Positions 13,574-28,419 are shown, numbered from the stretch's first letter. The stretch: DNA of 64,000 nt from Puia sp. (GCA_965214575.1 CBDCCE010000017.1:30256-94255), one strand, 5' to 3'. Numbers and translations: made by a program. Notes: a model not told the origin generated them from the sequence alone.

Positions 13574-13774
13574 ATGCCAAATTACAAAATAACCATTTAC
13601 CTCAGAAGCGGCAAGAAAATGACCGGCATCCGGTATCATTCATCTCAAGATATTGGTATGATAAAATCGTTTGCAATAGAAAAATTCAAAAAGGCGTTCC
13701 CTCTTGAGCGGCTGGATTATGTGGACGTAGATCCGACTGCGCTCGGTAAGAACATTGACGTTAAAAATCTTTAA
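13574..13774 (+). CDS. Hypothetical small protein
   Basis: 66 aa ORF with an ATG start. I recognise no family. Confidence 0.35.
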   Translation: MPNYKITIYLRSGKKMTGIRYHSSQDIGMIKSFAIEKFKKAFPLERLDYVDVDPTALGKNIDVKNL

Positions 13775-14016
13775 AGCCATTTAAACCGCGCGAGAATTGT
13801 ATGGACAAGTATAAGCCTGCTCTTCTATCGAGATATTGAATTGTGGCGCGTTAAATCGACTATTAGAAGTAGTCGAGACGTTTGCTATGGTACATTGGTT
13901 TTGAAATGGATATGCACAATATGTTAATAAGAAAGTGTAGAATAATTCATCATTTGCGATCTGAGTCCCCTATATATTAGGTAAATTTGTTAAGCTCTTT
14001 TCCATAAAATTATGAA

Positions 14017-14047
14017 TTGGTCTTTATTGACCTTTTTTATAACTTTG
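14017..14047 (+). promoter_or_regulatory. Candidate Bacteroidota-type promoter (-33 TTG / -7 TAACTTTG)
   Basis: TAACTTTG at 14040-14047 fits the TAnnTTTG -7 consensus. A TTG lies 20 nt upstream. The terminator at 14123-14157 lies about 100 nt downstream, which suggests a short transcript. Confidence 0.3.
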
Positions 14048-14122
14048 CACCCTTGTAAGGAAGTAACAACTGAGATCGAAAGTGTATTTTGTTAACAATC
14101 ATTTTTGGTTTTAAAAATTCTG

Positions 14123-14157
14123 AAGCCTGGGGTTGATCTCCCAGGCTTTTGCTGTTT
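14123..14157 (+). terminator. Rho-independent terminator
   Basis: The AAGCCTGGG-(8 nt)-CCCAGGCTT stem is 9 bp and perfect. TTgcTgTTT follows. Confidence 0.55.
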
Positions 14158-14220
14158 CTACAGCGGCCATGAGTCGCCTTGAAGTACTCGATCATGTCAC
14201 ACGAGTAAATTTCAGAAGTT

Positions 14221-14364
14221 ATGCTACCTTACAAGGACCCTGCAGAACCCTGCCGTTGTACAGACGGCATCGTTTATACTCCGTGGATTACTGTAAAAGG
14301 TAAACGCGTATATAAAGGAAAAGGAAAGGTTTTCGCCTTTCCATGTACAAGATGTTCTAAATAA
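14221..14364 (+). CDS. Candidate 47 aa Cys-rich micro-protein (CxC...CxxC)
   Basis: Manual translation gives MLPYKDPAEPCRCTDGIVYTPWITVKGKRVYKGKGKVFAFPCTRCSK, which has four Cys in a zinc-ribbon-like arrangement. A terminator follows directly. Confidence 0.25.
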   Translation: MLPYKDPAEPCRCTDGIVYTPWITVKGKRVYKGKGKVFAFPCTRCSK

Positions 14365-14381
14365 GACGGGTTAGTCCGTAC

Positions 14382-14416
14382 GGGTCCGGCAGGTAAGAAC
14401 TGTCCGGGCCCTTTTT
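14382..14416 (+). terminator. Rho-independent terminator
   Basis: The GGGTCCGG-(14 nt)-CCGGGCCC stem has one G.U pair. TTTTT follows. Confidence 0.55.
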
Positions 14417-14518
14417 ATTAACGGTTTAAATGTACACTTCGATATTGAAGTACCCATATTTATTTTGTTGTGCTAAAATCGTGCCGGTAGCATTATTGAA
14501 ATTCAAGGCGTTATAAAC

Positions 14519-14767
14519 TCACAACCCATAAGCGTCACATATCTGCCGAGATTTCTCGTCGTCAGATAGCAGGGGGCTTTCGTCAACCACGTTAAGAGCT
14601 TCGTATTGACACAGCTCAGAAAATTTTCTGTCTACGTCTTCTGGTTTCCATCCTTTTTTAGCAGCGACTGCATCCGATAACAAGGCAAACAAAACATTCA
14701 CCCTTGCATTTAGGTAAATGTTCTGTTTAATCAATTCCGCTATCGTTTTCTCCAGATTTGTTATCAT
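14519..14767 (-). CDS. Hypothetical protein, last gene of the island minus-strand operon
   Basis: 82 aa ORF. It overlaps the stop of the tape-measure-like gene by 4 nt, which suggests translational coupling. Confidence 0.4.
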   Translation of the reverse strand: MITNLEKTIAELIKQNIYLNARVNVLFALLSDAVAAKKGWKPEDVDRKFSELCQYEALNVVDESPLLSDDEKSRQICDAYGL

Positions 14768-16305
14768 TGTCCTGCAATTATTTGAGAGTCGTTTACCGCT
14801 GATAGCATAACCTGAGTCATAATTTCCTTTATTTTTTTTGATCCTTCATTGATCGTTGTGAACGTATTTTGCATGTGTGGCGCGAGACCTCCGTTAATAG
14901 TTACATGGATAGTGGTGGACTTGTTTCCGACTGTCTTAGCAGCTGCTCCTGTACCTGTGGGGGACGATCCGGCTCCAGCTCCAGGCAAAGCACCTTTTTT
15001 AAACAAGCTCTTTGGAGAATCTGTTTTCTTTTCTTCAGCATGGTCCTTTGCAAAGTCCGCCATACCCTCGGTAAAGCCTTTGTGAAATGCCCCGCCCATC
15101 CTACTGCCAGCGTTAGCGATTGCGCTTATCGTTTGATTTGCGCCTTCGAGAACAAGGGACGGATTAAATGTTAACGTGCCATGTATAACTTTTCCTACTC
15201 CGGTAAACACATCGACCACTATTCGAGCAAACTCTTTCATCGTTTCCCATACTCCCATTAAACCCGCTCTAAATGTTGCAGAGTTCCGATATGCCGCTAT
15301 AAATCCAGCCGCGAGAAGCGCTATGCCACCGACAATTAGCGTGATTGGATTCGCCCAAAATGCCGCGTTTAAGAGCCATTGCGCAACCGTCATTAATTTA
15401 GTTGCTACAGTTGTTGCGACCATAACGGTTTCATAAATTAAAAGGCCTCCAGCCACAATACCTACAGCTACTCCGATAGCGATCAATAGTTCGCGATGTT
15501 TTGACATAAAGCTTATGCTGCCTTGAAAAAGATTTGCAACGCGCTCAAGTATTGGGGCCAATCCGGCCTTAAGTTTCATAACAACTCCGCCAACGCTCAT
15601 TTGTATTGCTCCCATTGTTTTATGATACCTGAAAAGTGGGTCCGAGTCAGCTGCTGCCTTTGCAGATCCGGCGAACTCAGTTTGCAATTCCTTTAAAATC
15701 ATTTTCTGAGCCTCAGCTGCGTGGCCTGTCTCAGCCAATTTTTTAATAATATCGGTCTGAGTTTGATTAAAGTTTACACCAACACGGCGTAGAGCTGTAA
15801 TACCTCTGGCGGGGTCCTGCAATGCTTTGCCGACCATGATCGCGGTTTCATTCAGTCCTTTATGCAGCCTGGTTGACATGTCTAATATCGACTGAGAAGC
15901 ATCGCCGAACGTAGTTTTCGTAACCGACGGAAACGTCAATAACTGCGCCTGCATGTCGGTTATTTCCGCCCTGGAGAATGCAAATTGCTTGGATAATCCT
16001 TTTGCACTTTCCTCTAAACCTTCAAACGTCAATCCTGCTACGCCCCTGGTGCTTTCTAATCCAGCTCGTACCTGCGATTCCGCAAGGTGCAACTCATGAA
16101 ATTTCTCAGCGCCAACTTTTGCATATTCAGCAACCTGGAAACCGCCAAATGCGAGACCAAGTACGCCTACCATACCTAAAGCAGTTTTTTTTATGTTGCT
16201 CATAGTGCCATGAAAGGCATTTGCCTCATGTTCCGCGCTTTTTAATTTACCTGTAAGCAAATCCTTAAGCGTAAGGGTATACTTAACTTCGTGTTCTTGT
16301 GACAT
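14764..16305 (-). CDS. Phage tail tape measure-like protein
   Basis: 513 aa. The segment GKALQDPARGITALRRVGVNFNQTQTDIIKKLAETGHAAEAQKMILKELQTEFAGSAKAAA matches the conserved tape-measure core I know from phage and GTA tape-measure proteins. There is a central block of transmembrane-like helices and a Gly/Ala-rich tail. Confidence 0.7.
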   Translation of the reverse strand: MSQEHEVKYTLTLKDLLTGKLKSAEHEANAFHGTMSNIKKTALGMVGVLGLAFGGFQVAEYAKVGAEKFHELHLAESQVRAGLESTRGVAGLTFEGLEESAKGLSKQFAFSRAEITDMQAQLLTFPSVTKTTFGDASQSILDMSTRLHKGLNETAIMVGKALQDPARGITALRRVGVNFNQTQTDIIKKLAETGHAAEAQKMILKELQTEFAGSAKAAADSDPLFRYHKTMGAIQMSVGGVVMKLKAGLAPILERVANLFQGSISFMSKHRELLIAIGVAVGIVAGGLLIYETVMVATTVATKLMTVAQWLLNAAFWANPITLIVGGIALLAAGFIAAYRNSATFRAGLMGVWETMKEFARIVVDVFTGVGKVIHGTLTFNPSLVLEGANQTISAIANAGSRMGGAFHKGFTEGMADFAKDHAEEKKTDSPKSLFKKGALPGAGAGSSPTGTGAAAKTVGNKSTTIHVTINGGLAPHMQNTFTTINEGSKKIKEIMTQVMLSAVNDSQIIAGQ

Positions 16306-16307
16306 TC

Positions 16308-16694
16308 CTATGAAATTTTATAATCTAATTCTATTATTTGTCTTAATCCTCCAACGCCTCCAGAATACTCAACCGATTTGCATTTATATGTACCGTTGCG
16401 TTCAGGTAAAACTTTGTCTACGAGCTGCACATTATCGCCCTGTCTTACATAAGGAATTCCGAACGTTGTAAACTTTCCGTGAAGTCCATTGTAATAATAT
16501 TTTTTGAGTTCGTTTGTTGCAAGGGCTACAAGCTGGTCTATAGTTGTTGCTCCCAGGTATACCAGGTCCCTTCGTTCGCCGTCAACATTCGGAGGCCAGT
16601 TGTCTGTTGAATTTTTTTTCTGAAATGTTTTTACTCCTTTAGAAGTTAGTGTTACCAAAACCTCTATCCGCTTGAGTTTTGTTTTTTTTTCCAC
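16308..16694 (-). CDS. C-terminal part of a gpD/XkdQ-like tail hub protein (downstream frame of a split gene)
   Basis: 128 aa ORF whose only start is a GTG inside an A9 run. It lies in the +1 frame relative to ORF 16639-17535. The C-terminus (GDNVQLVD..NGTYKCKSVEYSGGVGGLRQIIELDYKIS) resembles the ends of late-control-D-like proteins. Confidence 0.4.
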   Translation of the reverse strand: MEKKTKLKRIEVLVTLTSKGVKTFQKKNSTDNWPPNVDGERRDLVYLGATTIDQLVALATNELKKYYYNGLHGKFTTFGIPYVRQGDNVQLVDKVLPERNGTYKCKSVEYSGGVGGLRQIIELDYKIS

Positions 16695-17535
16695 CTTGTT
16701 TATTGATCTCTCCGGTTTCTTCGGAAATAGTGTTGTGTGCTACAGCGCTCAATACAATTTCGTCTAGCCGCCTATACGTTAACTCGTCTGAAATTATCCC
16801 GCCTTGAATTTGATAAGTTTTAGAATAAGATGGCGGGTTATTAAAAATAAAAACTTTTGTTCCGTCTGCTATTGCGTCCTCTTCATTGTAAACAAAGCTG
16901 CCGCATCTTAACTCGTTACCTCTAAAATATGCTTCAAAATGAAAATCTTTTTTTAATTGCGCGAGTACTTCGCAAATAGTCGTTGAATCAGAACTTCTAT
17001 AAATCCCTACTACGGTTTGTGTTTTTTTACTTACTGTAAAAGGCAGTCCAACAAGAGTTATCATGTCTGCAAGCATGTCCTCTACCGTGCCGGTGTAATT
17101 TTTGTTTGGGGAGTTGGCCTGTTTCAACGTCCACATATTGTCTTCGCACTCAATTTCAATAGGAATTTTACTTGACACTTTCGAAATGTATCCTTCGAAA
17201 ATTGTATTCAGGGGTGCTACTTCATTATGTCTGCTGTCAAAATATTTGTATCCTGCCTGGATAGTAACCTTGTCACCACGCAAAAATAAAGGTGGCGTAT
17301 CTGAGAATCCTCCTATAGACTTGTTGGTTCCAGCAAGTGAATAGCGTCTGCCGTTCTCGTCTGTTACGTAGACTTTTTTGGGGATTACAATTTTAGCTTT
17401 ATCCGTCAACGTCTTCCACGAGCTTTCCGATTCAAAAGTGTGAACAAAATTAAATGTTAACGTTTTATTGCGACCGGGATAATCGGTTGTCGGAGCCTGC
17501 GTAAATGTAATTACAGAAATATTTCTAAACATCAT
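16639..17535 (-). CDS. N-terminal part of a gpD/XkdQ-like tail hub protein
   Basis: 298 aa. The pattern PLFLRGDKVTIQAGY..NTIFEGYISKVSSKIPIEIECEDNMWTLKQ is typical of the phage late control D / XkdQ family. The frame ends 13 codons after the A9 run. Confidence 0.4.
   Translation of the reverse strand: MMFRNISVITFTQAPTTDYPGRNKTLTFNFVHTFESESSWKTLTDKAKIVIPKKVYVTDENGRRYSLAGTNKSIGGFSDTPPLFLRGDKVTIQAGYKYFDSRHNEVAPLNTIFEGYISKVSSKIPIEIECEDNMWTLKQANSPNKNYTGTVEDMLADMITLVGLPFTVSKKTQTVVGIYRSSDSTTICEVLAQLKKDFHFEAYFRGNELRCGSFVYNEEDAIADGTKVFIFNNPPSYSKTYQIQGGIISDELTYRRLDEIVLSAVAHNTISEETGEINKQGGKKNKTQADRGFGNTNF
16682..16690 (-). other. A9 homopolymer (T9 on the plus strand) at the junction of two overlapping frames
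   Basis: The minus strand reads CAA GGT GGA AAA AAA AAC AAA. Removing one A, or a +1/-2 shift, joins the 298 aa ORF to the 128 aa ORF. Confidence 0.8.
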
Positions 17536-17755
17536 TGTCGGAAACGATTGCGCAGCTTATAGCTGCATGTTGCGCGGTGCGTTCGTAGATTTTAAATGTC
17601 TCGCCTGAAATGGTCCTTTTCTTTTCATGGTTCGTATAACTCCCATTATTGTTAAGGCACCAATATTCGATTTTGGGTTCCGTTAATCCCATGCGCGTCA
17701 TCGCGTCAACCAGCGTGTTAGATTCTGGATTTTCTTTTAGTGGTGGGTATAGCAT
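17525..17755 (-). CDS. Hypothetical protein
   Basis: 76 aa ORF, tightly packed with an 11 nt overlap on the downstream gene. Confidence 0.35.
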   Translation of the reverse strand: MLYPPLKENPESNTLVDAMTRMGLTEPKIEYWCLNNNGSYTNHEKKRTISGETFKIYERTAQHAAISCAIVSDNDV

Positions 17756-17757
17756 GA

Positions 17758-18048
17758 TTATTTCTTTGTGCGGTTTGCAATTTCAGCCATCTTCGCGGCG
17801 GCGCTCGTTACAATAGGGTTATCTACTTTTGTGATAACCTTTTCCTTTTTGGGTTGGGCTATCGAAGTGTTAACGGGCTTGCTGTACTTATTTTTTAGTT
17901 CGTTCATTTTAGCGGCTGCTGCATTTACTCGCTCGGCGCTGGTTTCACGGCTGATTTTCTTTGTCATAGCGATATTGTTTTTAATTGTCTTAAACTGCTT
18001 CATTGTATTTTCGCCATTCAGGTAAGCGTTTAGTAATCTTGTGTCCAT
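17758..18048 (-). CDS. Hypothetical Lys/Ala-rich protein
   Basis: The ORF-track call (17758-18114) runs through a terminator hairpin, so it is trimmed to the ATG at 18048 (MDTRLLNAYL). It contains an internal repeat AAAAKMNELKN / SAAAKMAEIAN. Confidence 0.35.
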   Translation of the reverse strand: MDTRLLNAYLNGENTMKQFKTIKNNIAMTKKISRETSAERVNAAAAKMNELKNKYSKPVNTSIAQPKKEKVITKVDNPIVTSAAAKMAEIANRTKK

Positions 18049-18060
18049 TGTAAGAAATTG

Positions 18061-18103
18061 AAAAAATAAAAACCAGGCGAGTCTAATATTAAACTCACCT
18101 GGC
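18061..18103 (-). terminator. Rho-independent terminator
   Basis: The minus strand has a CCAGGTGAGT-(10 nt)-ACTCGCCTGG stem with one G.U pair. TTTTTATTTTTT follows. Confidence 0.7.
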
Positions 18104-18258
18104 AAAAAAGACAATTGGCTCTATGGAGGATTGAAATCCTAAGCCCTCGCCGTTTATGAAAGCACTTTAGTAAGCCGCTGGCTTAACTGAGGGCGTTGCG
18201 CTTGGCAAAATTCCGGGTGCCGGGTTAACCGGTTTGTCGTTATTCATGATTGATTTAT

Positions 18259-18456
18259 TTACTGTACTGTTAAACTAATTTGTAAAGTTTTCAATTCCAT
18301 TTCAACGAACCATTTCTCGCTATCGTGCGAAATCAGTCCACTCGAATAGCTGACGATTTCTGTTCCTGGATTTGCGTTCCATGTGTTCCTGACGAATTCG
18401 AAAAATGTACCGAGTTCTTTCGGATCAAATTCGAGTCTTACTGTTTTATTTTCCAT
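18259..18456 (-). CDS. Hypothetical protein
   Basis: 65 aa ORF. It lies 7 nt downstream of the 236 aa ORF. Confidence 0.3.
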   Translation of the reverse strand: MENKTVRLEFDPKELGTFFEFVRNTWNANPGTEIVSYSSGLISHDSEKWFVEMELKTLQISLTVQ

Positions 18457-18463
18457 TGTTTAG

Positions 18464-19174
18464 TTATTTACGTGTGATTGTTAAGTTTTCTTCAAAAAAT
18501 GTTTTTAAAACGTCCGCGTCTGCAACATAGCCTACGGCGGCATGTTTTAATTTCAGAAGGTCGACAAGGTTATCGTATGCGGCCTGCTGGTAAATGTTTG
18601 CAGGCGCGTAATCGGTTATTAGGCTGGCTTCGTATGCCTCGTTTTTTTCAACCGCCCGAGTTAAACCAGCCTTTTTGTATAGCCTATCTACGAAATAAGG
18701 CTCGACAGCAAGCGGATTACAGTTGAATATCGTTTTGAATCTAGCGACGCTGTTAGCCTCGCATTCCAAAACAGATTTGAGAAACGTTTCTGCTTGTTTC
18801 TTTCCTTCTGTATGAGCAAACTCAATGTCTTCTTTACGCTGCTTAGCTCTTTGTTTTAACTGAATTCCAATAAAATGCTCTCGTACTTTATCCTGGTTAC
18901 TGTTGAATTTTTCGTTATAAACCTTAACAGCTTCTGCGTATGCCGGGTAATTCGGGTGCGCATCGCCGTCAATAGTTTCAGGATACCATTCCGTAGCTGT
19001 TCTTATGAATGAAGCGGCATCCTGTTCACCCTGAAATACAGATATTCCGACGTTGCTATCGAACTTTTCAGGATTTGAAAAACTAAGAGCTTTTTGCTTT
19101 ACGAAATATCCCACACCGCCATTGTCTTTTATGATTTTTCGGTAGGACTCTTTCAGTTCTTTAATTCGTGACAT
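18464..19174 (-). CDS. Hypothetical protein
   Basis: 236 aa ORF with charged, helical-looking composition. I recognise no family. Confidence 0.5.
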   Translation of the reverse strand: MSRIKELKESYRKIIKDNGGVGYFVKQKALSFSNPEKFDSNVGISVFQGEQDAASFIRTATEWYPETIDGDAHPNYPAYAEAVKVYNEKFNSNQDKVREHFIGIQLKQRAKQRKEDIEFAHTEGKKQAETFLKSVLECEANSVARFKTIFNCNPLAVEPYFVDRLYKKAGLTRAVEKNEAYEASLITDYAPANIYQQAAYDNLVDLLKLKHAAVGYVADADVLKTFFEENLTITRK

Positions 19175-19188
19175 ATGTTTTGGTTTGT

Positions 19189-19530
19189 TTAAATTTCTGT
19201 AGGGAAAAATATTATAATAGGCGCGTTTCTTTCTTTGACAGCGTTTATAAATAGTAGCCTATTCTTAAATCGCTTACTGGGAATAATTAAGGGTAACCCT
19301 GTATCTTTATATCGCGTTACGACTTCGAGAGTGTCTGAAAGTTTTACCTCACTAAAATCAGGCTCGTCGTAAGGGGTTTGCTTTTTCAAACGACTGAGAA
19401 AATCATTCTTATTTCCCGAGATTAAAAAGATCGCCGAGCCTCCTGATACCATACAGATATCTGCTTTTTTCATTCGGTGCTCTGAAAGAAGTTTATCGTA
19501 AATCACTTGGAGGGTTTTGATGGTTCGCAA
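19189..19530 (-). CDS. Hypothetical protein
   Basis: 113 aa ORF. It overlaps the upstream 190 aa ORF by 28 nt in another frame. Confidence 0.35.
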   Translation of the reverse strand: MRTIKTLQVIYDKLLSEHRMKKADICMVSGGSAIFLISGNKNDFLSRLKKQTPYDEPDFSEVKLSDTLEVVTRYKDTGLPLIIPSKRFKNRLLFINAVKERNAPIIIFFPTEI

Positions 19531-20075
19531 AGCAGAACGACATGAATATTAAGCCGCCTGGATTCGGATTCACATAATCGAACGATAGGATCAGTATCAG
19601 GTATGTTATTTTTACACTGAATAAGGATTACGCGCTCTTCCCTTTTTAATTGTTCAAATTTGTAAGTAAGAATGCCGAGTTTTTCAGCGTCCGTCTTATA
19701 GCTATGAACTGAAATGAGCGCTAAATTTTCCTTCAAATGTTTGTTCAACTCGGTCCACAGGTCGTAAACTTCGGATTGTGTTATGTTCGAAATCTTGGTT
19801 ACCTGTCCTCGCCTGGACATGATATCCAAAATAGCGGCTTCTTGGTGACGTGTAAACTTTCTGGCTGACCTTTTTGTCAAATGCTCTTGCAATGCAGTTT
19901 TTTTAAATAAAAGAACCTTATGCGGCTTCTCGAATTCGATTTCCCGCTTACTCGTTAAATCATACACGCTCTGTACTGCGAGGCCAAGAAAGGCCGCTGC
20001 GTCCGTTATATTTAAATATCCCTCGGGTACGGCAATAGACTTGGCCTTACCGCTCTTCGTTGTTGTAGCTGGCAT
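19503..20075 (-). CDS. HTH (excisionase/MerR-like HTH_17) DNA-binding protein with an unknown C-terminal domain
   Basis: 190 aa. The N-terminus YLNITDAAAFLGLAVQSVYDLTSKREIEFEKPHKVLLFKKTALQEHL has the same HTH pattern as the island's other excisionase-like protein (24923-25231). Confidence 0.5.
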   Translation of the reverse strand: MPATTTKSGKAKSIAVPEGYLNITDAAAFLGLAVQSVYDLTSKREIEFEKPHKVLLFKKTALQEHLTKRSARKFTRHQEAAILDIMSRRGQVTKISNITQSEVYDLWTELNKHLKENLALISVHSYKTDAEKLGILTYKFEQLKREERVILIQCKNNIPDTDPIVRLCESESRRLNIHVVLLCEPSKPSK

Positions 20076-20333
20076 AGAAAAATAATTAATTACCTCTCGT
20101 TTGAAGAGGGAATAATCCTGTTTGTGTTTTGTTTGGGAACTACTCAGAAAGAGAGTAGCAGTTGCATAGTTATAAGACCAATTACTCCTACAAAATTAAC
20201 TAAAAATAACGAAACATGCAAGCATCCGTGCTAACTAAGTAGCCTACATTGCAGGCTGGCAGAGGGTTACACGGTTAAGACATAGTTCTAAAAGTCAATA
20301 CAGCAATAGCTTTGCGAGCAAAAAAACATATTT

Positions 20334-20363
20334 ATAAAAGCCCGGATTTTACTCCAGGCTTTT
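20334..20363 (-). terminator. Rho-independent terminator (hairpin usable on both strands)
   Basis: The minus strand has an AGCCTGGA-(6 nt)-TCCGGGCT stem with one G.U pair. TTTTAT follows. It lies just downstream of the ORF ending at 20380. Confidence 0.55.
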
Positions 20364-20379
20364 GACATTTTTGTTACTA

Positions 20380-20571
20380 CTAAGCAATTTTCTTCAGGTC
20401 GTTGATTGTAACGTACTGCTGAATCAGCTTGCCGTCTTTATCGAAGCCCGTTACCTGTATATCGCCGTCCTCACACATTTCTATAAGGTCTACCGGCGCT
20501 CCCACCTTGAATGAGTGTCCGTTTTCGTTGTTGCTTTTCTTGATCTGGTACATCGGGTTCGGGGTTTTCAT
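20380..20571 (-). CDS. Hypothetical small protein
   Basis: The ORF-track call (123 aa) overlaps the terminase 3' end. It is trimmed to the internal ATG at 20571 (MKTPNPMYQIKK.., 63 aa). Confidence 0.3.
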   Translation of the reverse strand: MKTPNPMYQIKKSNNENGHSFKVGAPVDLIEMCEDGDIQVTGFDKDGKLIQQYVTINDLKKIA

Positions 20572-20713
20572 TTTGTTTTGATTTGTTGATGAAGTAAAAG
20601 TAATATCCGGTTTGGGCCTGGCTGCAATTATTCGATAGGCTGGAAAAAGTCGGAACAGGTTTCTACGTGAGAGTTGCGAAGGTGCCTTCGACGAATGGAC
20701 GGTTTTTAGCGGT

Positions 20714-22210
20714 TTAATACCAATTTTTTCCCGTGATATCATTTCTGCCAAATGTGCTGTTTAATCCGGAGAATCCTCGCAGTTTTGTACGGAATTCGTT
20801 AGGGAACGCTACGACAGCAGCATATCTAAAGAGGTCCGCAAAGTGTCCGTACTGCTCGTACGTCTCTCCGGTTTCCTGGTCCTTGAACGTTTTCTTCAAT
20901 GCGGTACCGTCCGAGTCCTCTAACAAATACAATAAGTCAGCTATCATTTTAGTACAATGATCGCCTATTACGATTCTGACTCCTTTATATCCCTCCTCTC
21001 CCCCTGCGAAAACGTCGTTGATAAATTCTTTACTCTTAATAACCGAAGGATTTCCGCCGCCCTTTCCGTCTTTCCCTTTTTTCGGTACCCGGTCGTTAGG
21101 CCTGAATTGTTCAAGCGCTTGAATAATAATACTAATATCATCATGCCCCCTTTCATTCCTGGTATCCTCATGACGACCGGACGCATCCCCGGCTACAGTC
21201 ATGCCCTCGGTATGGCCTTTATATCGCTTACATATCTCCCTACAAACAGCCGACGTGTTATTATTTGGACTCCTTAGCTGGATCTCGTCGACCATGTATA
21301 ACGTGTTCATCGATTTCTGAAAAATACCACAGCTTACACCGGGCTTAACATTAAAGTCAAAGGATACAATAAGCGGAAGTTTCGGATTGTACGCAATTTT
21401 ACAAGTATTGACACTCATTTTGAATGTAGAAAAGAACGTGCCTCCGACAATCTTACTTCCCCATCTGCCTAACGCGTATATTCCGAAATAATACGGGTCG
21501 CTCTTCTCTTTACCTAATATCTCCGCCAATGACTGAGGGGTTATGTGCGGATTGTCTCTGTAGGTTGAGTGCATTACCGTGTAAGCGCTAACTACAGTCT
21601 CCCTATTGCCGATATCGGTATAAGTTTTACTACTGAACGAAAGTTCATCCTTGCCCTCAAAGAATCGTTTCCAAAACCAATTGTCGCGGTAGTCTCCCTC
21701 CTTTACCTCAGGGTTAATAGTAAATATTTCCTGGAGATACTCGGCCCTGTTAGTTCTTATGGTCGACGTAATTGTGATGAAGTCGCTGTAATTAATTATA
21801 TCCTCCTCATACCATGCGCCCGTTGGGTCTTTGACGGATTTAATAGATGTTACGTCGTCACAACCACGCGCTATGAAACGGTTGCCATTCAATGTACAAA
21901 CGATCTCCAGAGGATTGAGTTTAAACTCAAAGAACTCTTTCAATCCGAGCGTTATTATGGTCTGCTTTATTGTCTCATAGCTGCTCTCTTTTATTGAGTT
22001 GTATCTATTACGGATAAGCATGTACAGGAAATACGGCTCGTAAACGCATCGAAAGATTAGTTTCTTGGCAGCAAAATCGGACTTACTGGACCCTCGGCCT
22101 CCATATAAAATGAGATAGCGGTCCTTATTTTCTACCAACGGGATAAACCGCTCGTTAATAAGATCCTCCCAAGCTCCCCAATTGATTATAACGTCTTGCT
22201 GTGGTTTCAT
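20714..22210 (-). CDS. terL: Phage terminase large subunit (PBSX/Terminase_3-like)
   Basis: 498 aa. It has the Walker A motif LILYGGRGSSKSDFAAKK and Walker B-like acidic motifs (GAWYEEDI), with a C-terminal nuclease-like half. A small terminase-like ORF lies directly upstream. Confidence 0.85.
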   Translation of the reverse strand: MKPQQDVIINWGAWEDLINERFIPLVENKDRYLILYGGRGSSKSDFAAKKLIFRCVYEPYFLYMLIRNRYNSIKESSYETIKQTIITLGLKEFFEFKLNPLEIVCTLNGNRFIARGCDDVTSIKSVKDPTGAWYEEDIINYSDFITITSTIRTNRAEYLQEIFTINPEVKEGDYRDNWFWKRFFEGKDELSFSSKTYTDIGNRETVVSAYTVMHSTYRDNPHITPQSLAEILGKEKSDPYYFGIYALGRWGSKIVGGTFFSTFKMSVNTCKIAYNPKLPLIVSFDFNVKPGVSCGIFQKSMNTLYMVDEIQLRSPNNNTSAVCREICKRYKGHTEGMTVAGDASGRHEDTRNERGHDDISIIIQALEQFRPNDRVPKKGKDGKGGGNPSVIKSKEFINDVFAGGEEGYKGVRIVIGDHCTKMIADLLYLLEDSDGTALKKTFKDQETGETYEQYGHFADLFRYAAVVAFPNEFRTKLRGFSGLNSTFGRNDITGKNWY

Positions 22211-22211
22211 G

Positions 22212-22586
22212 TTAGAAGGGTTTGGGGTTGTCAGTTATAGGAACTGCTTTTGAAGGATGTGTTAATTCAGTAAATGGTATATCCTGTATTTCTGCTGCCG
22301 GTTGCTGAGGTCTACGTAGGCTATGAATTACCTGAACAACGCGGGGTCCGCTATCTACTGTAACCTCAGTTCGCGCGAGCTTAGGCTCCAGGAATTCTAC
22401 CACGCTTACCAACAAGCGAGCAAAATCTCCGTCGCTCATGGTATCAAGGAATGTATTAAACCGTTTATGGTTTCGCATTGCGTTGTAGAGTTCCTGGGTG
22501 CGGCTAATATGCTCTTTTGTTTTTTCGCTTAATGCTCCCTCGGGCCTGCCTGCCGGGTTGCCCGATTGTCCCTTTTTGAATGCCAT
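22212..22586 (-). CDS. Putative small terminase / DUF5681-type protein
   Basis: 124 aa. The N-terminal KKGQSGNPAGRP motif is common in phage small-terminase-like proteins. The stop lies 1 nt before the terL start. Confidence 0.4.
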   Translation of the reverse strand: MAFKKGQSGNPAGRPEGALSEKTKEHISRTQELYNAMRNHKRFNTFLDTMSDGDFARLLVSVVEFLEPKLARTEVTVDSGPRVVQVIHSLRRPQQPAAEIQDIPFTELTHPSKAVPITDNPKPF

Positions 22587-22588
22587 AA

Positions 22589-22744
22589 TTATTTTATTAT
22601 CGGGTACACTTGCTTTAATAGTTCCATATAAAGTGTTACAAGCTCTTTGTTCGAAAGACCTTGTAATTCTTTTTCGAATTTCTTCTGATTGTCGGAAATG
22701 AATGCCATTAATAGGCGCTCTGTTCTTGTGCTTTTCTGTTTCAT
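22589..22744 (-). CDS. Candidate 51 aa protein
   Basis: Manual translation gives MKQKSTRTERLLMAFISDNQKKFEKELQGLSNKELVTLYMELLKQVYPIIK. The stop lies 2 nt before the small-terminase-like ATG. Confidence 0.25.
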   Translation of the reverse strand: MKQKSTRTERLLMAFISDNQKKFEKELQGLSNKELVTLYMELLKQVYPIIK

Positions 22745-22814
22745 TATTGTGTGTTTTTTATGTGTTTTTGTACCTTAACCGGACCTAAATCCGTTATTAT
22801 ATTGGTTTTCAGTG

Positions 22815-23660
22815 TTATTTATGTTTGGATAGGGAAAGTGAATCGCAAATCCGGTAAAATGTTCCTAACCTGACCTTACCTGAATTTTTCAGAAGACTAC
22901 TGTATTTCCGATCTGTTACCTCGGCTTTGTAATCTGCATGCGTCGAACTGACCTTGTGAAACCATTCCCGGCCCGACTCTCCAAACTCTGAGGCGAGCGC
23001 CAATCCAATCCGAACCCAATTATCATAGCCTTCAGTAACATTCAGCTGCTCAGCTACGATCCTATCGACATACGCCTGGACCTTTATTGCGTCTTTGCCG
23101 GTTGAATTTGCTGCCTGTTTCGCCGGTTTCGCATACACAAGGCCGGTATATCTGACGGCGTTCGGGTTTATGAAACTGGTTTCCGGTGTATTGTCGCTTA
23201 CTCCGCGCAGCCTGTTGACGTTTTTGCCGCTTGGATCTATTGGAACATTCGCTTTTTCGAAAAGCTCGTAAAGGGCCTGAAAATGCGCCTGGTGAGCTTC
23301 CGGATATTTGATCGGTATAACGGCGTAGACCCCGCGCCCGGAAACGGACAGTCCGGCAAATAGAATAAAATCAAACTGCCTGAGCCAGGCGAGAAAATGC
23401 AGCCAATCCGTTACGCCTTGGTCCCATTCTATACAAATCAGTCCCGTGTGTATACCTGCCTCGCGATTTTTACTAACACACGAAATGAAATAACAGGGCA
23501 GCATTGCTTTAGCCCGGTCGCGATCTTCTTTATCGGCCATTTCACGAATTCTCTCGACTTGCAACCGGTACAAATCGGTACAAAGCGCTTCCCAGAGAGT
23601 CGTTTGCTGTCCGACCCTGTCGAAATAGTTATTAAAACGGGTAATAATTGTATATAACAT
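22815..23660 (-). CDS. Primase (BT4734/VirE-N AEP-like domain plus a PriCT-2-like C-terminal domain)
   Basis: 281 aa. AMLPCYFISC..GLICIEWD..FAGLSVSGRGVYAVIP resembles the BT4734-like primase N domain. The C-terminal GYDNWVRIGLALASEFGESGREWFHKVSS resembles PriCT-2. Confidence 0.55.
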   Translation of the reverse strand: MLYTIITRFNNYFDRVGQQTTLWEALCTDLYRLQVERIREMADKEDRDRAKAMLPCYFISCVSKNREAGIHTGLICIEWDQGVTDWLHFLAWLRQFDFILFAGLSVSGRGVYAVIPIKYPEAHQAHFQALYELFEKANVPIDPSGKNVNRLRGVSDNTPETSFINPNAVRYTGLVYAKPAKQAANSTGKDAIKVQAYVDRIVAEQLNVTEGYDNWVRIGLALASEFGESGREWFHKVSSTHADYKAEVTDRKYSSLLKNSGKVRLGTFYRICDSLSLSKHK

Positions 23661-23680
23661 TGTAAGTCATTGTAAAAATC

Positions 23681-23786
23681 AACCGGTCCAATGGTCCAAT
23701 TGTACCGGTACAGTCGTTTTTGTACCGGTACTGGTTTGGTACAGTCTACTATATAGGAGACTGTACCACTGTACCACTGTACCGAC
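23681..23786. promoter_or_regulatory. Iteron block, candidate island origin of replication
   Basis: The block fills the intergenic gap between the ATPase stop and the primase start. It contains:
- GGTCCAAT x2 in tandem (23685-23700);
- TGTACCGGTAC x2 (23701-23711 and 23721-23731);
- GGTACAGTC x2 (23707 and 23738);
- the inverted repeat GGTACAGTCT/AGACTGTACC around the AT-rich actatatagg;
- ACTGTACC x3 in tandem (23760-23783). Confidence 0.6.
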
Positions 23787-24851
23787 CTATACCAAAAGCC
23801 TCCAATTCTGGTCCGGCCCCTGATTTATCATTCCGTGAATTTTCATTTCTTTAAACATGGCTTTGGAGGTATTCAAGCCCTTGCCCGAAACCTTCATTAT
23901 TCTTTCAATAGCGTCGCTATAAGCAAAGGAGTTTGGCGGCGCAAAGGCCTCGTCTGTGATCTTACGGATCAGTTCAACCCGTTTTCTGTCCTTTTCGCCT
24001 GGATCAGCTTTCGCAGCCTCTCCCAAATAGGCATGATACCCTTTCGACTTATCGTACACGAACTGAATAGCTGGAGCGTCGGAGTTTCCGCCGTTACGCA
24101 GGAGCTTCGCCTCGATGGTGCTAATCTCTCCTTCCCTTTTGATATTTATTACGCTTTCTGATTTGCGCTGAAGTTGAGAACCGAGGTGACCGCGCTCTTT
24201 TCCGGACCCGCCCGGATTAAGGTGCATGATTACAATAACTGGGGCTTTGAATTGAATCGCAAGCTGTTCAAACGCTTTTACCAGGCCATTGCTCAGCATG
24301 GCATCGTTAACGTCGTCTATGTAGTCAGCTCCGCCGTCAAGAGCTATTAAATGAATGCCTCCGAACTTATCGGCAGCGCCCTGACAGATTTCCTGGGTAA
24401 CGACAGCGTAATCCGCGAGAGACAGGCGGCGAATGTTATAAGAAAGGAAATTTTCCGGGCATGTCTGTAAACCAGCGCGCCGGATTATTGATCGGATATT
24501 TTGTTGATGCCGGGACCGGCTTTGCTCGGTTTCGATATGAACAACAGCGAGACCGTGAGAGTTTGTTAGCACGTCCCAACCTGGAAAGCCGTCGTATTCG
24601 CCCGACGCGATTGCGCCGGATAGCGTTACCCCGAGCAGGGAGGTTTTTCCGGCCTTAGGGTCGGCAGCGATTGTAGTTATGTTTTCCGGCGTGCTGAGAA
24701 TTGCTTCGCCGAATTTTATGATAGCACGCGGTTCGGTCTCGATAGTGGTATCGGTAACGCGTAGGGTTTCATATTTCTGTAAGAAATCTTTTACAGATAA
24801 GGCGTATACGTCTTGGTCTTGTGCGAAATAATTTGTATCTTGTGGGTGCAT
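23787..24851 (-). CDS. RecA-fold P-loop ATPase (AAA_25/RepA-like putative replicative helicase)
   Basis: 354 aa. It has Walker A ADPKAGKTSLL and Walker B IHLIALDGGADY. It is paired with the primase gene. Confidence 0.55.
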   Translation of the reverse strand: MHPQDTNYFAQDQDVYALSVKDFLQKYETLRVTDTTIETEPRAIIKFGEAILSTPENITTIAADPKAGKTSLLGVTLSGAIASGEYDGFPGWDVLTNSHGLAVVHIETEQSRSRHQQNIRSIIRRAGLQTCPENFLSYNIRRLSLADYAVVTQEICQGAADKFGGIHLIALDGGADYIDDVNDAMLSNGLVKAFEQLAIQFKAPVIVIMHLNPGGSGKERGHLGSQLQRKSESVINIKREGEISTIEAKLLRNGGNSDAPAIQFVYDKSKGYHAYLGEAAKADPGEKDRKRVELIRKITDEAFAPPNSFAYSDAIERIMKVSGKGLNTSKAMFKEMKIHGMINQGPDQNWRLLV

Positions 24852-24864
24852 TTAAAAGAATTGG

Positions 24865-24903
24865 AAAGCGTTCCGGCTTGCAGGCCATTGGAGCGCTTTT
24901 TTT
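24865..24903. terminator. Strong hairpin with a T7 tract on the plus strand; separates the int-xis unit from the replication unit
   Basis: The AAAGCGTTCC-GGC..GCC-GGAGCGCTTT stem is followed by TTTTTTT on the plus strand. On the minus strand the U tract is interrupted. Confidence 0.5.
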
Positions 24904-24922
24904 GTGAAGCTGCCTATAGTGG

Positions 24923-25231
24923 TTATTTGGATTTAGCGCGAAATCTTACGCCCGGTTTGCGGGGACCTGATTTTATCCAGGCTGATAGTTCGGCTTTCGA
25001 AAAATAAAGGAATTTGCCCTTTTTGTATGCGTTGAAAGACTTTGCGCGGACGTAGCTCCGGATTGTGTCCTCTGATACTCCCAGATATGCAGCAGCTCCA
25101 TCAATTTTTAATAATTGATCTTCGTCCGCGACAGACTTAGTAGACGGTTTTAATGCATCTTGGACAATCTGTCTGATAAGCTCCAAGCTTTCTGATGAAA
25201 GCTCTTGCGTAATGGTAATATTGTTGCTCAT
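24923..25231 (-). CDS. xis: Excisionase-like HTH_17 DNA-binding protein
   Basis: 102 aa. LLKIDGAAAYLGVSEDTIRSYVRAKSFNAYKKGKFLYFSKAELSAWI is the excisionase/MerR-type HTH pattern. It lies in the integrase transcription unit. Confidence 0.6.
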   Translation of the reverse strand: MSNNITITQELSSESLELIRQIVQDALKPSTKSVADEDQLLKIDGAAAYLGVSEDTIRSYVRAKSFNAYKKGKFLYFSKAELSAWIKSGPRKPGVRFRAKSK

Positions 25232-25431
25232 GACCGATTGCCTTTTGTGGGTTCGGTAATTAACTGAGGCTGAACGGTAGTGACTGTGGGCGCGGGAACC
25301 TGACCTGAGTAGGTCGGATGTTTAATATCCAAGAGCAAATCTTCGATGTGCCGCAATCTCTTGTCTATTATTTCGAACGGATTGTTCATTTGCTGAGTGT
25401 CATTTTTTATTGACCCAACAAAATTACTCAA
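25228..25431 (-). CDS. Hypothetical small protein
   Basis: 67 aa ORF with a 4 nt ATGA-type overlap on the xis-like gene. Confidence 0.35.
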   Translation of the reverse strand: MSNFVGSIKNDTQQMNNPFEIIDKRLRHIEDLLLDIKHPTYSGQVPAPTVTTVQPQLITEPTKGNRS

Positions 25432-25476
25432 TGCTCTTGGCGAGTTCCGGGATGCTCCGGAGCGAGTAGGTGTAAA

Positions 25477-26199
25477 TTATTCCGAGTCTGCGTCTATCCT
25501 CTTTTCGAGAATGTTGGCTTCGTCCGTAGCCGTAGCGATGCCTTCAGGAGAATTGAGCAAGGGAATAACGCTCCTGATTCTTTCCAGTTTGTTTATACTT
25601 GCCTGATTCGAGCCGTTCGGAGCTTTTTTCTCAAGTCCTATTCGGGCTTGTCTATCGAGGATCGCGGAATATTCATCTTTCAATTTTCTTGGAGGCACTT
25701 CTCGTAAATATTCGGCGACAGAAATTCTGTCGTAAAAGCAAATCAATGCGATCTGTTTTTGTGATAACTGAACATTGTCCACATTGCTATTGTAGTGCCT
25801 ATTCCGGAAATTAGAATTATTCAGATACTTTAAATAGTCAATTAGCCCAAGTAGGCAAGCCATTTTATAATACTGTTCGGTCAGACTGCCATTAAGTAAA
25901 TCGCTTAGCTCTGCGTAATATAACTTTTCGATTCGACCGCCAATCCTCTGTAATTCCTTTTGTTTTTTCGCTTCATCCGACAATGGGCTTAACGGATTTT
26001 CAACCGGAGAATATTTTTTCTCGCCTTCGAATGAATCTTTTCTCCAGATATGAAAATTTTCTTTCTCCTCTACAGTCGGAGCGGTCCAATATTTTACGCC
26101 CGGTTCTCTAATCGCTTGTACTGGATGGTTAAGCAATCCGTTCGCATACTTGTCAATATCAAGCGTAGGCAAAAAGGCTATTTGTAGTTCGGGCAGCAT
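25477..26199 (-). CDS. Hypothetical protein co-transcribed with the integrase
   Basis: 240 aa ORF. Its start overlaps the integrase stop by 1 nt. I recognise no family. Confidence 0.45.
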   Translation of the reverse strand: MLPELQIAFLPTLDIDKYANGLLNHPVQAIREPGVKYWTAPTVEEKENFHIWRKDSFEGEKKYSPVENPLSPLSDEAKKQKELQRIGGRIEKLYYAELSDLLNGSLTEQYYKMACLLGLIDYLKYLNNSNFRNRHYNSNVDNVQLSQKQIALICFYDRISVAEYLREVPPRKLKDEYSAILDRQARIGLEKKAPNGSNQASINKLERIRSVIPLLNSPEGIATATDEANILEKRIDADSE

Positions 26200-27422
26200 T
26201 ACTGGTTATTGAGTTTTGAAAAATCAAAATCGTCCATCCTCGCGGCGGCTGCAACCATCGCCGGATTTCTGATTTCAGAATAGATCTGAGTTGTTTTGAT
26301 ATCTGAGTGAGACATCATTTTACTCTGAGTATGCAAGTCGGTGCCTCTCTCTTGCTGAAGCACAGCCCACGTATGCCTAAAACCGTGAAAGGTCATGTGT
26401 TTTGTTATTCCAGCGGCCTTAACCCATTTGTGCATTTTCCTATTATTTTCAGTTGAATAAGCCAGGCCCGGAAATACAAACTCTTCAGGATCTCTCCTTT
26501 CTCCTATCAATGCAACCGAAACGGCGCTATTAGGAACGGGAATAGCCATTGCTTTTTTGTTTTTCTCAGTTATAAAGGAGATATAATCTCCGGTCGCCTC
26601 ACTCCGCTGCACTTCAGACCATTTCAGCTTTGCTATATCCCCGTATCTTAAATTGGTCAGCGCTGAGAAAATCGCCGCGCTTTTCAATACGGGTAGCTCA
26701 GGGAAAGGTTTGTCAATTAACATCTGCAACTCCTCAGCGGTCAAATAGTCGATTTTCGTTTCCTTTTCAGGTATTGACTCCACCAATGAACTCAGATCAG
26801 TAGTAATAATTTGCGGATCGGCAGCGTAGGCCTCTTTAAGCGCGGCTTTGAATTTATGAAAATATGTCGCGGCCGTATTTTGACCCAAAACGGAGAGAAG
26901 GTGCCTTTTAAAGCCATCGCAAAAAGATCTATTAAGGCTGGTTATCGGTAACGATCCTGCTGTATGCTGTTTTAGGTGCTTAATAAAGCTCGTCCAACCG
27001 TCAACCGTCGAGCCAGTTCTCTCCTTCGCCAAACCCTCGCAGTATACGATAAAATCGACCGTTTTTGCCTTTGCGGCTAAAAATGAGTAATCGCCCTTAT
27101 TAATCATTCGCTGGCGGTTCACTTCCCCGGCTACAGCTTCGAGCAGGGTTTCTTCGTTGGCGAGGGACTGTTCAGCTGTCAGCTTTCTTTTTTTTGGCTT
27201 GCCAGACTTGTCCAGTACCGGACGAATCGCCTTATTTGGTTTCCCATGCTTATCTACGTATTCCTGAATTTCATACTCAATGTCGCTATAAAGGAATTTA
27301 CCGGTAAACTCCCGACGTGTCTCCGCTTGGGTCTCGGAGGGCTTAATTGGAGGGTAAAAATCATAGTAAAGACTAATGAGATTACCCTTAATCGGTTTGC
27401 GTCTTAAATTAACTTTTGCCAT
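26199..27422 (-). CDS. int: Tyrosine site-specific integrase (Bacteroidota arm-binding/SAM-like type)
   Basis: 407 aa. The C-terminal catalytic motifs are HGFRHTWAVL (HxxR) and IKTTQIYSEI (nucleophile Tyr). The N-terminus MAKVNLRRKPIKGNLISLYYDFYP is typical of Bacteroidota element integrases. Confidence 0.9.
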   Translation of the reverse strand: MAKVNLRRKPIKGNLISLYYDFYPPIKPSETQAETRREFTGKFLYSDIEYEIQEYVDKHGKPNKAIRPVLDKSGKPKKRKLTAEQSLANEETLLEAVAGEVNRQRMINKGDYSFLAAKAKTVDFIVYCEGLAKERTGSTVDGWTSFIKHLKQHTAGSLPITSLNRSFCDGFKRHLLSVLGQNTAATYFHKFKAALKEAYAADPQIITTDLSSLVESIPEKETKIDYLTAEELQMLIDKPFPELPVLKSAAIFSALTNLRYGDIAKLKWSEVQRSEATGDYISFITEKNKKAMAIPVPNSAVSVALIGERRDPEEFVFPGLAYSTENNRKMHKWVKAAGITKHMTFHGFRHTWAVLQQERGTDLHTQSKMMSHSDIKTTQIYSEIRNPAMVAAAARMDDFDFSKLNNQ

Positions 27423-27443
27423 AGGGTTTTAAGGTACGATTAA

Positions 27444-27469
27444 AGTACGTTCAGGGTACAAGATAAGGC
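27444..27469 (+). promoter_or_regulatory. Candidate arm-type binding repeat (right end)
   Basis: AGTACGTTCAGGGTACAAGATAAGGC is preceded by a further GGTAC at 27433. It is the counterpart of 11874-11899. Confidence 0.4.
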
Positions 27470-27517
27470 CAAAAATCCACATATCAAAGCCCCGTTAAAA
27501 ACATCTTTTAAATGAGA

Positions 27518-27551
27518 AAACCCGCTCCAGTATTGACTTTGGAGCGGGTTT
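27518..27551 (-). terminator. Hairpin terminator just inside the right att, downstream of the host gene that enters the island
   Basis: The AAACCCGCTCCA-(10 nt)-TGGAGCGGGTTT stem is 12 bp. On the minus strand TTTTCTCATTT follows. Confidence 0.65.
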
Positions 27552-27585
27552 GCTATATGTTTTCTGTGGGTTTAATATTAGCCGT

Positions 27586-27604
27586 TCACTTTCGCTTGCC
27601 AAAC
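27586..27604 (+). repeat. Right att core (direct repeat copy 2)
   Basis: TCACTTTCGCTTGCCAAAC. Read on the minus strand, it encodes the last five codons plus the TGA stop of ORF 27586-28395 (FGKRK*). Confidence 0.85.
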
Positions 27605-28395
27605 ATAATCGCAATATAGGCATTGAAAAACAGCTGTTTAGGTGGCACATAAGCCATGAGTGGCATTTTGCTGAAGTAGTATTCGCCGGTTACTCCGGCT
27701 TCAAACGCCGTCACGCTCGTATTATAACGGCCATAGTCGAAGCGCATAGCCAGTTTGGCGTTGAGTCCGGGTGTAAACTGCAAATGGTTCCAGCCGCCGC
27801 CCAGGCCTTTTGTATCATACACTTCATATGCACTGTCGAATATCTTGGGATAGGTACTCTGGATCATATACGTGCTGGGAGGAGGAAAAGGAAATACATC
27901 AAGCACATATTGCTTCAGCATGCCCAGGGAAACGCCACCACTGTACAGGTAGGTTACGGCCACACCGTTTTTGTTGCCCTTGCTGCCGATTAAATGCTGC
28001 TGGCCAATAGCTGCTTTGAGTTCATAGAAATTGTTCATTCTTCCAACAGACACGTAATTGTAAGAATATCCGTCACCGGATACGGCTTCTTTATGATCCT
28101 TGGGATCTTTTATTTCGTTCAGTTCAATAGTGAGCGTGCGTGTCTTATGGTTGTTGATGAATTTGCCCCGGTCGTAAAAAATGCCATAGCCGTTGGTGTT
28201 CAGTCTGAAGCCAAGCGCCCAGTAGTGATCAAAAACCAGATCACCCTCTTCCTCCATTTTCATCATCTGTTTCATCCGCTGTTTTTTTGCGGAATTTTTG
28301 TCATTGTTGTATACAGGCGTGGTCGATTGCTGGGCTAAAACAGGAAGAGTAATGAGGAAGAGGCAGAAAAGAAACAATACGTTTTTTAGCGGCAT
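27586..28395 (-). CDS. Hypothetical outer-membrane/beta-barrel-like protein (integration target gene)
   Basis: Trimmed to MPLKNVLFLFCLFLITLPVLAQQ (signal peptide) at 28395, because the longer call overlaps the OsmC gene. The protein is rich in alternating aromatic/Gly beta-strand-like segments. Confidence 0.55.
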   Translation of the reverse strand: MPLKNVLFLFCLFLITLPVLAQQSTTPVYNNDKNSAKKQRMKQMMKMEEEGDLVFDHYWALGFRLNTNGYGIFYDRGKFINNHKTRTLTIELNEIKDPKDHKEAVSGDGYSYNYVSVGRMNNFYELKAAIGQQHLIGSKGNKNGVAVTYLYSGGVSLGMLKQYVLDVFPFPPPSTYMIQSTYPKIFDSAYEVYDTKGLGGGWNHLQFTPGLNAKLAMRFDYGRYNTSVTAFEAGVTGEYYFSKMPLMAYVPPKQLFFNAYIAIMFGKRK

Positions 28396-28419
28396 GATTG
28401 GAATTACTGCTGTAAATTT

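Follow-up and report, generated by a model that had tools for sequence, protein, structure and literature searches.

Phage satellites generally bring their own integration and replication functions and lack the structural genes for a virion of their own. Both traits are seen in the island described here, which occupies positions 11817-27604 (15.8 kb) of a 64,000-nucleotide stretch of Puia sp. DNA (GCA_965214575.1, CBDCCE010000017.1:30256-94255), referred to throughout as the window. The first is represented by attachment (att) repeats, an integrase, a protein with an HTH_17 domain, a primase, an AAA_25 ATPase and an iteron-like block; searches with Pfam, PHROGs and hhalign bear out the second. 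The island also carries both terminase subunits (TerS and TerL) and two tail genes. It probably belongs to a family of integrative phage satellites in Chitinophagaceae-type Bacteroidota that has not been described before and whose gene content points to dependence on a helper phage.

Several described systems resemble the island in part. The phage-inducible chromosomal islands that form capsids (cfPICI) are integrative and similar in size, and likewise carry an integrase, a regulator, a primase and their own TerS and TerL, the latter of phage origin. Among the SatelliteFinder families they alone possess TerL (PMC10085698). However, cfPICI make their own heads from a complete module of HK97 capsid, portal, protease, head-tail adaptor and connector genes and steal nothing but tails, whereas the window island has none of these genes; among its relatives the module is represented only by the ClpP protease of one island, L032. 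SatelliteFinder forbids tail and holin genes in its cfPICI and PICI models (PMC10085698), a rule that the window island breaks with its tape measure and baseplate hub, and its host belongs to the phylum Bacteroidota.

The PICI of Gram-negative type have the same order of integrase, HTH regulator and primase or replicase, their own small terminase, and the use of helper capsids and tails that is supposed for the window island. Unlike it, they lack TerL and tail genes. The PICI core is represented in the window by the integrase, the HTH_17 protein (which is not a match to the Phage_AlpA profile), the primase and a TerS-like protein. No homologue of the PICI redirection genes cpm, ppi and rpp was detected in the window, and the P4-like markers psu-delta-sid, alpha primase and epsilon had no Pfam or PHROG match among the island open reading frames (ORFs).

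The EPIPs of Mycolicibacterium carry a tape measure, a gene that their authors consider unusual in satellites, the only other proposed case being PLE11 (preprint PMC12822802). Like the window island, EPIPs are satellites (about 11-16 kb) with a tape measure and TerS. They differ in having a serine integrase, TerS only, capsid or scaffold genes and head-tail connector genes, and they have been isolated as particles; the window island has a tyrosine integrase, TerL, a hub and no head genes. Within Bacteroidota, VEIMEs are integrated in Flavobacteria genomes (10.1101/2022.07.26.501625). Compared by description only, VEIMEs and PICMIs, which are marine satellites, are likewise small, integrative and mostly capsid-less, some with TerS, and enter full-size helper heads as concatemers, but they are defined by recovery from virions, and TerL and tail genes are not reported for them.

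The original prediction held that satellites are described mainly from Proteobacteria and Firmicutes and that the element fits no known satellite family. Most of satellite biology does come from those two phyla. The former statement holds for PICI, more than 99.9% of which were found there (PMC10085698), but not for the VEIMEs of Flavobacteria. As to the latter, the island does not fit the definitions of cfPICI, P4-like elements or EPIPs, yet its tape measure has a precedent in EPIPs. A literature search, incomplete in coverage so that an earlier description is possible, found no account of the island family. The evidence from sequence supports a family that is new within the known category of phage satellites and unusual in gene content.

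Islands with a terminase but no portal or capsid gene

TerL homologues number in the hundreds. A set of 190 loci was fetched from genomes, metagenomes and IMG/VR and classed by tblastn with the proteins of a complete 44-kb phage contig (L005/L006), in which the order is TerS, TerL, a gp36-like gene, Portal_Mu, Mu_F, ClpP protease, capsid, DUF2586 sheath, tube, TMP_3, DUF6046, hub and baseplate genes. Where TerL was at least 51.8% identical to that of the window, every locus was a small island with a window-type TerS upstream and an integrase nearby, and tblastn found no gp36 or portal gene downstream. At 51.4% identity or less, nearly all TerL genes had a gp36-like gene, a portal gene and Mu_F downstream, with ClpP next where the flank was long enough. 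A neighbour-joining tree was built from 100 distinct TerLs, those of seven of the ten islands among them, and the seven island sequences formed a single clade (100/100 bootstraps) nested among phage TerLs. Three loci examined after the tree (L193, L194 and L195) proved to be islands as well, with host genes on their flanks.

The phages in question are Bacteroidota myoviruses of about 40 kb with a Mu-like head, such as the uncultured contigs L005/L006, L191 and L192. Their nearest cultured relatives are the Flavobacterium myoviruses lotta8-1, pippi8-1 and FPSV, at 26-29% identity in TerL and hub. Across this group, homologues of the island proteins (TerL, TerS-like, hub, tape measure, DUF6046, Mu_F and ClpP) are 26-54% identical. 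These phages are complete: they possess a portal, a capsid, a sheath, a tube, a baseplate and lysis genes, whereas the island has no portal, capsid, tube, sheath or lysis gene. The island TerL clade is derived from the TerLs of these myoviruses, which are likely to be both helpers and gene donors.

Besides that of the window there are nine islands, of 12.5-16.2 kb, in Ginsengibacter, Puia and Chitinophagaceae metagenome-assembled genomes, several of them in tRNA genes, which gives a lineage of at least ten. Among the hosts, Ginsengibacter hankyongi BR5-29 has been isolated in culture. Syntenic islands in other Bacteroidota had been suggested as something to look for, and these nine share a backbone that protein clustering resolves into an integrase, often a protein here called C8, an HTH_17 protein, a replication module, TerS, TerL and a protein here called C3. 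None of the nine contains a portal or capsid gene. The replication modules vary, and consist of AAA_25 plus primase, a fused BT4734/VapE primase-helicase, DUF6371/Zn-ribbon proteins or DnaB, unlike the Prim-Pol and helicase of the reference phage. Three relatives with complete flanks have att repeats, one of the copies being located in each case where a tRNA gene has its 3' end. The repeat is perfect in L003 (tRNA-Leu, spacing 15,844 bp) and L004 (tRNA-Ser, 12,469 bp) and 84% identical in L032 (tRNA-Arg, 16,207 bp). The window island has the family's TerS-TerL-C3 trio, its integrase and replication backbone, its size of 12-16 kb and a TerL of the island clade. The nine capsid- and portal-free islands with this backbone, the att repeats and the single TerL clade support the satellite interpretation first proposed for the window.

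The window island is bounded by a perfect 19-bp direct repeat, TCACTTTCGCTTGCCAAAC, whose chance expectation in 20 kb is calculated as about 7e-4. The attL core (11817-11835, strandless) lies directly upstream of a host lipA-like gene (10796-11803). The attR core (27586-27604, strandless), a perfect match to it, overlaps the stop codon, and the five codons before it, of a host gene for a 298-aa protein (27586-28482, minus strand), whose end across attR reads, as the reverse complement, ...FGKRK*. Between the repeat and the integrase gene are 164 bp. An att-bounded element of 15.8 kb had been recognised in the original prediction, and this stands; the span of 14519-27422 given to its gene set is too short, since a left arm of 2.7 kb and low GC content belongs to the island as well. 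Every recognisable island gene is on the minus strand.

The terminase pair is intact. TerL (20714-22210, minus strand) is of the PBSX or Terminase_3 type (Terminase_3, 5.6e-33). Its Walker A motif, its Walker B motif with the catalytic glutamate and its nuclease acidic residues are invariant across the island clade (alignment A1). Between the window and L001 TerLs (79% identical) the nonsynonymous divergence dN is 0.14, with the synonymous divergence dS saturated. From these features the window TerL looks functional. The TerS-like protein (22212-22586, minus strand) has a DUF5681 N-terminus (1.5e-7); its family, F16, sits directly upstream of TerL not only in the islands but also in eight phage loci, and in L195 a true Terminase_2 gene occupies the TerS position. 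Two TerL homologues, P0042 and P0071, are about 800 aa long and have the precomputed domains PF14890 or PF07591 in addition to Terminase_3. These domains are presumably of the intein/Hint type, and the two proteins may be intein-containing terminases.

C3 can be considered the hallmark of the family. In the window it is a protein of 236 aa (18464-19174, minus strand) that had been taken for an orphan; it is instead a conserved gene, and a search with its profile picks out a single ORF in every island (10/10) and none in the phage loci (0/4). Among 1.84 billion proteins, no more than 29 representatives turned up. In the relatives its length ranges from 181 to 255 aa, with large indels. No match was found in Pfam, in PHROGs with each member or in PDB sequences with the profile, and the window's C3 had only a marginal match in PADLOC (E 0.00077). 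The C3 subfamily to which the window protein belongs (also P0243-P0247 and P0249) has an extra segment of about 80 aa compared with other members, which looks in sequence like an internal duplication of the module HP.H..A...Y..F, single elsewhere.

Genes for portal, capsid, protease, tail tube and lysis were originally said to be absent, and Pfam, PHROGs and hhalign bear this out. No island ORF matched portal, capsid, tube, sheath or lysis families in Pfam, PHROGs or profile-profile comparison, and with hhalign none matched the portal, capsid, protease and Mu_F profiles of the related phages. The hhalign comparison set comprised 96 gene families built from the fetched phage and island loci. 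A portal or capsid gene might have been concealed among the orphan ORFs, but these same searches found none there. As also claimed, the coding strand has no ORF longer than 240 aa beyond the named genes.

Virion genes in an exchangeable slot

Downstream of TerL and C3, each island bears a differing subset of helper-type virion genes, one or two in number. Mu_F is present in L001, L003 and L194, DUF6046 in L004, L010, L193 and L195, the hub in the window, L032 and L009, the ClpP head protease in L032 and the tape measure in the window only. The window and L194 have in common the run of TerL, ORFs like those of 190 and 113 aa in the window, and C3, after which the window has hub and tape measure and L194 has Mu_F. 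Because the two diverge at this point, the region downstream of C3 can be regarded as an exchangeable slot.

The slot genes do not have a common history. The island Mu_F genes are sister to one another (84/100), so that Mu_F was retained as the islands diverged. Island hubs are each nearer to phage hubs than to each other (0/50), and this grouping indicates repeated capture of the hub from phages. Inheritance of the hub within the island lineage was rejected, as the window and L032 hubs are not sister (0/50). Mu N, SPP1 gp7/Mu_F, tape measures and hubs have in common that they are minor parts of virions, sit at the tail tip or the portal and accompany the DNA into the cell. Judged from sequence relationships, the slot genes were probably exchanged with helper phages, and the satellite versions probably substitute for minor virion or DNA-delivery proteins.

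Two of these genes deserve separate mention. In L032 a ClpP-type head maturation protease of 227 aa (7843-8526; phrog_94, 5e-35) is encoded directly upstream of C3, TerS and TerL, and the island contains no capsid gene to provide its substrate. DUF6046 (L005 9420-10001, L004 14459-15076) has the position of the phage Mu N protein, between tape measure and hub in the phage, and bears a faint resemblance to DNA_circ_N (E 0.13) and to the RIFT domain of Sipho_tail (E 0.017).

In the window the slot holds an intact tape measure and a broken hub. The tape measure protein (513 aa; 14764-16305, minus strand) matches phrog_27166 (1.1e-30) and, below the Pfam cutoff, TMP_2 (9e-6); over residues 4-513 it is 47% identical to that of the phage contig L192. 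The baseplate hub gene (16308-17535, minus strand), 54% identical to the L192 hub, is split by a +1 frameshift into pieces of 298 and 128 aa, the frames switching inside a run of nine A residues on the coding strand (A9, 16682-16690). Removal of one A gives a 409-aa hub that aligns end to end with the 390-425-aa homologues on contigs of about 40 kb, and the phrog_4930 profile runs unbroken across both pieces (2e-25 and 1e-15). The hub had been identified from the outset, as 298 plus 128 aa; the assignment is upheld by phrog_4930, but to one frameshifted gene of about 409 aa rather than two ORFs. PHROGs, a sub-threshold E217_GP41 match and synteny are the basis of the call, and the specific gpD/XkdQ label is tentative; compared with PDB, the hub profile gave spurious PadR matches only.

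The frameshift is more likely to be real than to reflect a general assembly artefact. General assembly error was considered and rejected, since neighbouring overlapping ORFs are distinct genes (Maf, UbiA) and other long homopolymers lie inside intact ORFs. The latter was seen, where checked, for homopolymers of at least eight bases elsewhere in the window, and is a weak argument against an artefact of sequencing. Local error at A9, or rescue by transcriptional slippage, is possible. As a run of this length can permit transcriptional slippage, the hub may be partly expressed and not dead.

Integration, replication, cargo and small ORFs

Each gene call of the original prediction was recovered by Pfam and PHROGs. 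The tyrosine integrase (26199-27422, minus strand; Phage_integrase 4.8e-18, Phage_int_SAM_5 1.1e-11) shows the HxxR and catalytic tyrosine motifs in translation. Beside it in the early region is C8 (240 aa; 25477-26199, minus strand), which has counterparts in the same place in L032, L009 and L194, with weaker conservation in L193, and no family match in Pfam, PHROGs or PADLOC. A 67-aa ORF (25228-25431, minus strand) is conserved in L032 and L193. It is followed by the HTH_17 protein (24923-25231, minus strand; HTH_17 8e-12), an excisionase or AlpA-like regulator (phrog_66, excisionase/regulator, 4e-11). This excisionase-like protein had been recognised at first sight; a second HTH_17 protein, of 190 aa, had been missed. 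It is encoded in the late region (19503-20075, minus strand; HTH_17 1.1e-7), has a relative in L194 and is a candidate late regulator.

The replication module consists of a RecA-fold AAA_25 ATPase (23787-24851, minus strand; AAA_25 1.4e-6), a probable replicative helicase or initiator that is conserved in L032, L009, L010 and L195, and a primase (22815-23660, minus strand). The latter matches PriCT_2 (1.7e-12), phrog_15962 (DNA primase) and, below threshold, BT4734-like_N, and is homologous to the N-termini of the fused primase-helicases in L003 and L004. Between the two genes is an iteron-like block (23680-23795, strandless). The iterons claimed there at the start are real, with three copies of GGTACAGT, two of GTACCGGTACA and a 16-nt palindrome (23737-23768), and the block fits a candidate replication origin by its sequence.

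The arm inside attL (11836-14518, plus strand) is recognised as cargo from its composition (GC 0.38) and its small ORFs, all on the plus strand. These encode proteins of 129 aa (12619-13008), with an N-terminus like a signal peptide, 64 aa (13272-13466) and 66 aa (13574-13774), the last conserved in islands L001 and L194. The first and third thus run counter to the other genes of the island. No credible match in the arm was obtained from Pfam, PADLOC or Rfam; the sole PADLOC match there was a marginal one of the 64-aa ORF to Cmr5 (E 0.0046). The Rfam scan of the whole island for noncoding RNA was empty. The 22 nt just inside attL (11836-11857), TTGTAAAATCAATACCATAGCC, recur with 86% identity 1.66 kb further in (13499-13520) and may be left over from an earlier end of the element or from a tandem insertion. 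Other islands have additional genes of their own. For example, the Ginsengibacter island L004 has a tRNA-Asp gene (15183-15257) between its att sites, close to the end attached at tRNA-Ser, and L193 has opposite-strand DUF3800 and DUF5677 genes between the late genes and the integrase (13520-17539), which may be accessory or defence cargo.

The remaining ORFs are small and, like the late genes, on the minus strand. One of 82 aa (14519-14767), whose start overlaps the tape-measure stop, has no family match. Three of 76, 118 and 65 aa (17525-18456) matched nothing in Pfam, in PHROGs or, with hhalign, among the 96 phage and island families, nor did the 118-aa protein in PADLOC. The 113-aa ORF (19189-19530) is weakly conserved in L194 (E 2e-4), and the 123-aa ORF (20380-20751) had no match in Pfam, PHROGs or hhalign.

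Weighing the readings, and a possible life cycle

Some observations count against a satellite. This copy of the hub is frameshifted, and at least one of its tail genes may therefore be decaying. Hub precedes tape measure in the window, the reverse of the order tape measure, DUF6046, hub seen in L192, L005 and L191, and DUF6046 is absent. No helper prophage was found within the 64-kb window, and no island-type TerL occurs among IMG/VR viral contigs. The sample amounts to ten islands, several on incomplete contigs. AlphaFold2 models of the largest orphans have low confidence: that of the 236-aa protein, from a two-sequence alignment, has a pLDDT of 39 and that of the 240-aa protein, from a single sequence, 35, and both are all-helical.

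The broken hub, the non-phage order of the tail genes and the missing DUF6046 would suit an immobile remnant of a full myovirus prophage that has lost its head, tail and lysis genes. Such an origin is nevertheless improbable. In the phages about 18 kb, with all the head genes, separate TerL from the tail-tip genes, so the gene set of the window did not arise by one deletion. Independent decay would not repeat the same gene set or produce a single TerL clade, yet the same small architecture is found in ten islands, and the seven placed TerLs are one clade. None of the relatives is a full-length prophage of which the island could be a leftover. The att repeats are perfect here and in two relatives and still 84% identical in a third, the modules for replication and integration do not resemble those of the related phages, C3 is absent from the phage loci, and the core genes other than the hub are intact. 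A small autonomous virus with capsid and portal among its unannotated ORFs has a far slighter claim, although nine to ten ORFs lack a detectable homologue and the two predicted structures are of low confidence. The largest orphans, of 236 and 240 aa, are too short for a portal, the 236-aa family extends down to 181 aa, and neither all-helical model resembles the HK97 fold. The orphans do not match the head-gene profiles of related phages, and tail tube, sheath and lysis genes are absent. Size, variability and the helical character of the models argue against an HK97-fold capsid or portal among the orphans, while a novel capsid is possible.

It is also conceivable, though improbable, that the main use of the phage-like genes is interference with invading phages, the copies of terminase, hub and tape measure poisoning packaging or tail assembly. 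Some mobile elements and satellites are known to encode interference with tail and virion assembly (PMC11364771, PMC10884400). The accessory virion genes of the islands differ from one to the next and track those of phage relatives, as would be expected in an arms race. However, TerS and TerL form an intact, catalytically complete pair throughout the family, which would be costly for a decoy, and PADLOC found no credible defence system in the island, only the marginal matches to Cmr5 (E 0.0046) and CARF_HEPN (E 0.00077). Interference and satellite transfer are moreover compatible, and known satellites do both.

If the islands are helper-dependent satellites, their life cycle might proceed as follows. 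When a matching myovirus of about 40 kb is active, either as a prophage or by infection, the island would be excised by its integrase and HTH_17 protein and would replicate from the iteron origin. Island TerS and TerL would then recognise island DNA and fill helper procapsids through the helper portal, and helper tails and helper lysis would complete and release the particles. The islands, at 12.5-16.2 kb, have roughly one third the length of the helper-type contigs (about 40-44 kb). Given this ratio, headful packaging of concatemers of about three units and packaging into down-sized capsids are both compatible with the data. Capsid down-sizing occurs in the P4 and SaPI systems. C3 is the best candidate for a factor of helper interaction, redirection or docking, and could be an analogue of the PICI redirection genes.

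A role for the accessory virion proteins of these putative satellites in altering DNA delivery is proposed with low confidence; more conservatively, the genes would interfere with helper assembly. It is a speculative idea, more doubtful than not, that the family follows a new hijacking logic, in which helper capsid and tail are combined with the satellite's own packaging motor and, by way of the slot, its own minor virion proteins that go into the cell together with the DNA or ahead of it (tape measure, hub, DUF6046 or Mu_F), with C3 as a new class of redirection factor. Were it so, the satellite could be delivered into lysogens that exclude the helper, or its ejection could be tuned to a short genome.

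A satellite family of this kind would add a type of gene content between PICI and cfPICI, with its own terminase, no capsid and optional tail-tip genes. Detection tools for which tail genes are disqualifying and TerL is a cfPICI marker (PMC10085698) would miss it or call it a defective prophage. With C3 as hallmark gene and Ginsengibacter hankyongi BR5-29 as cultured host, it would be accessible to experiment. The variable virion-gene slot could reveal which helper components a satellite profits from replacing, and the family would carry satellites into the Chitinophagaceae of soil and freshwater.

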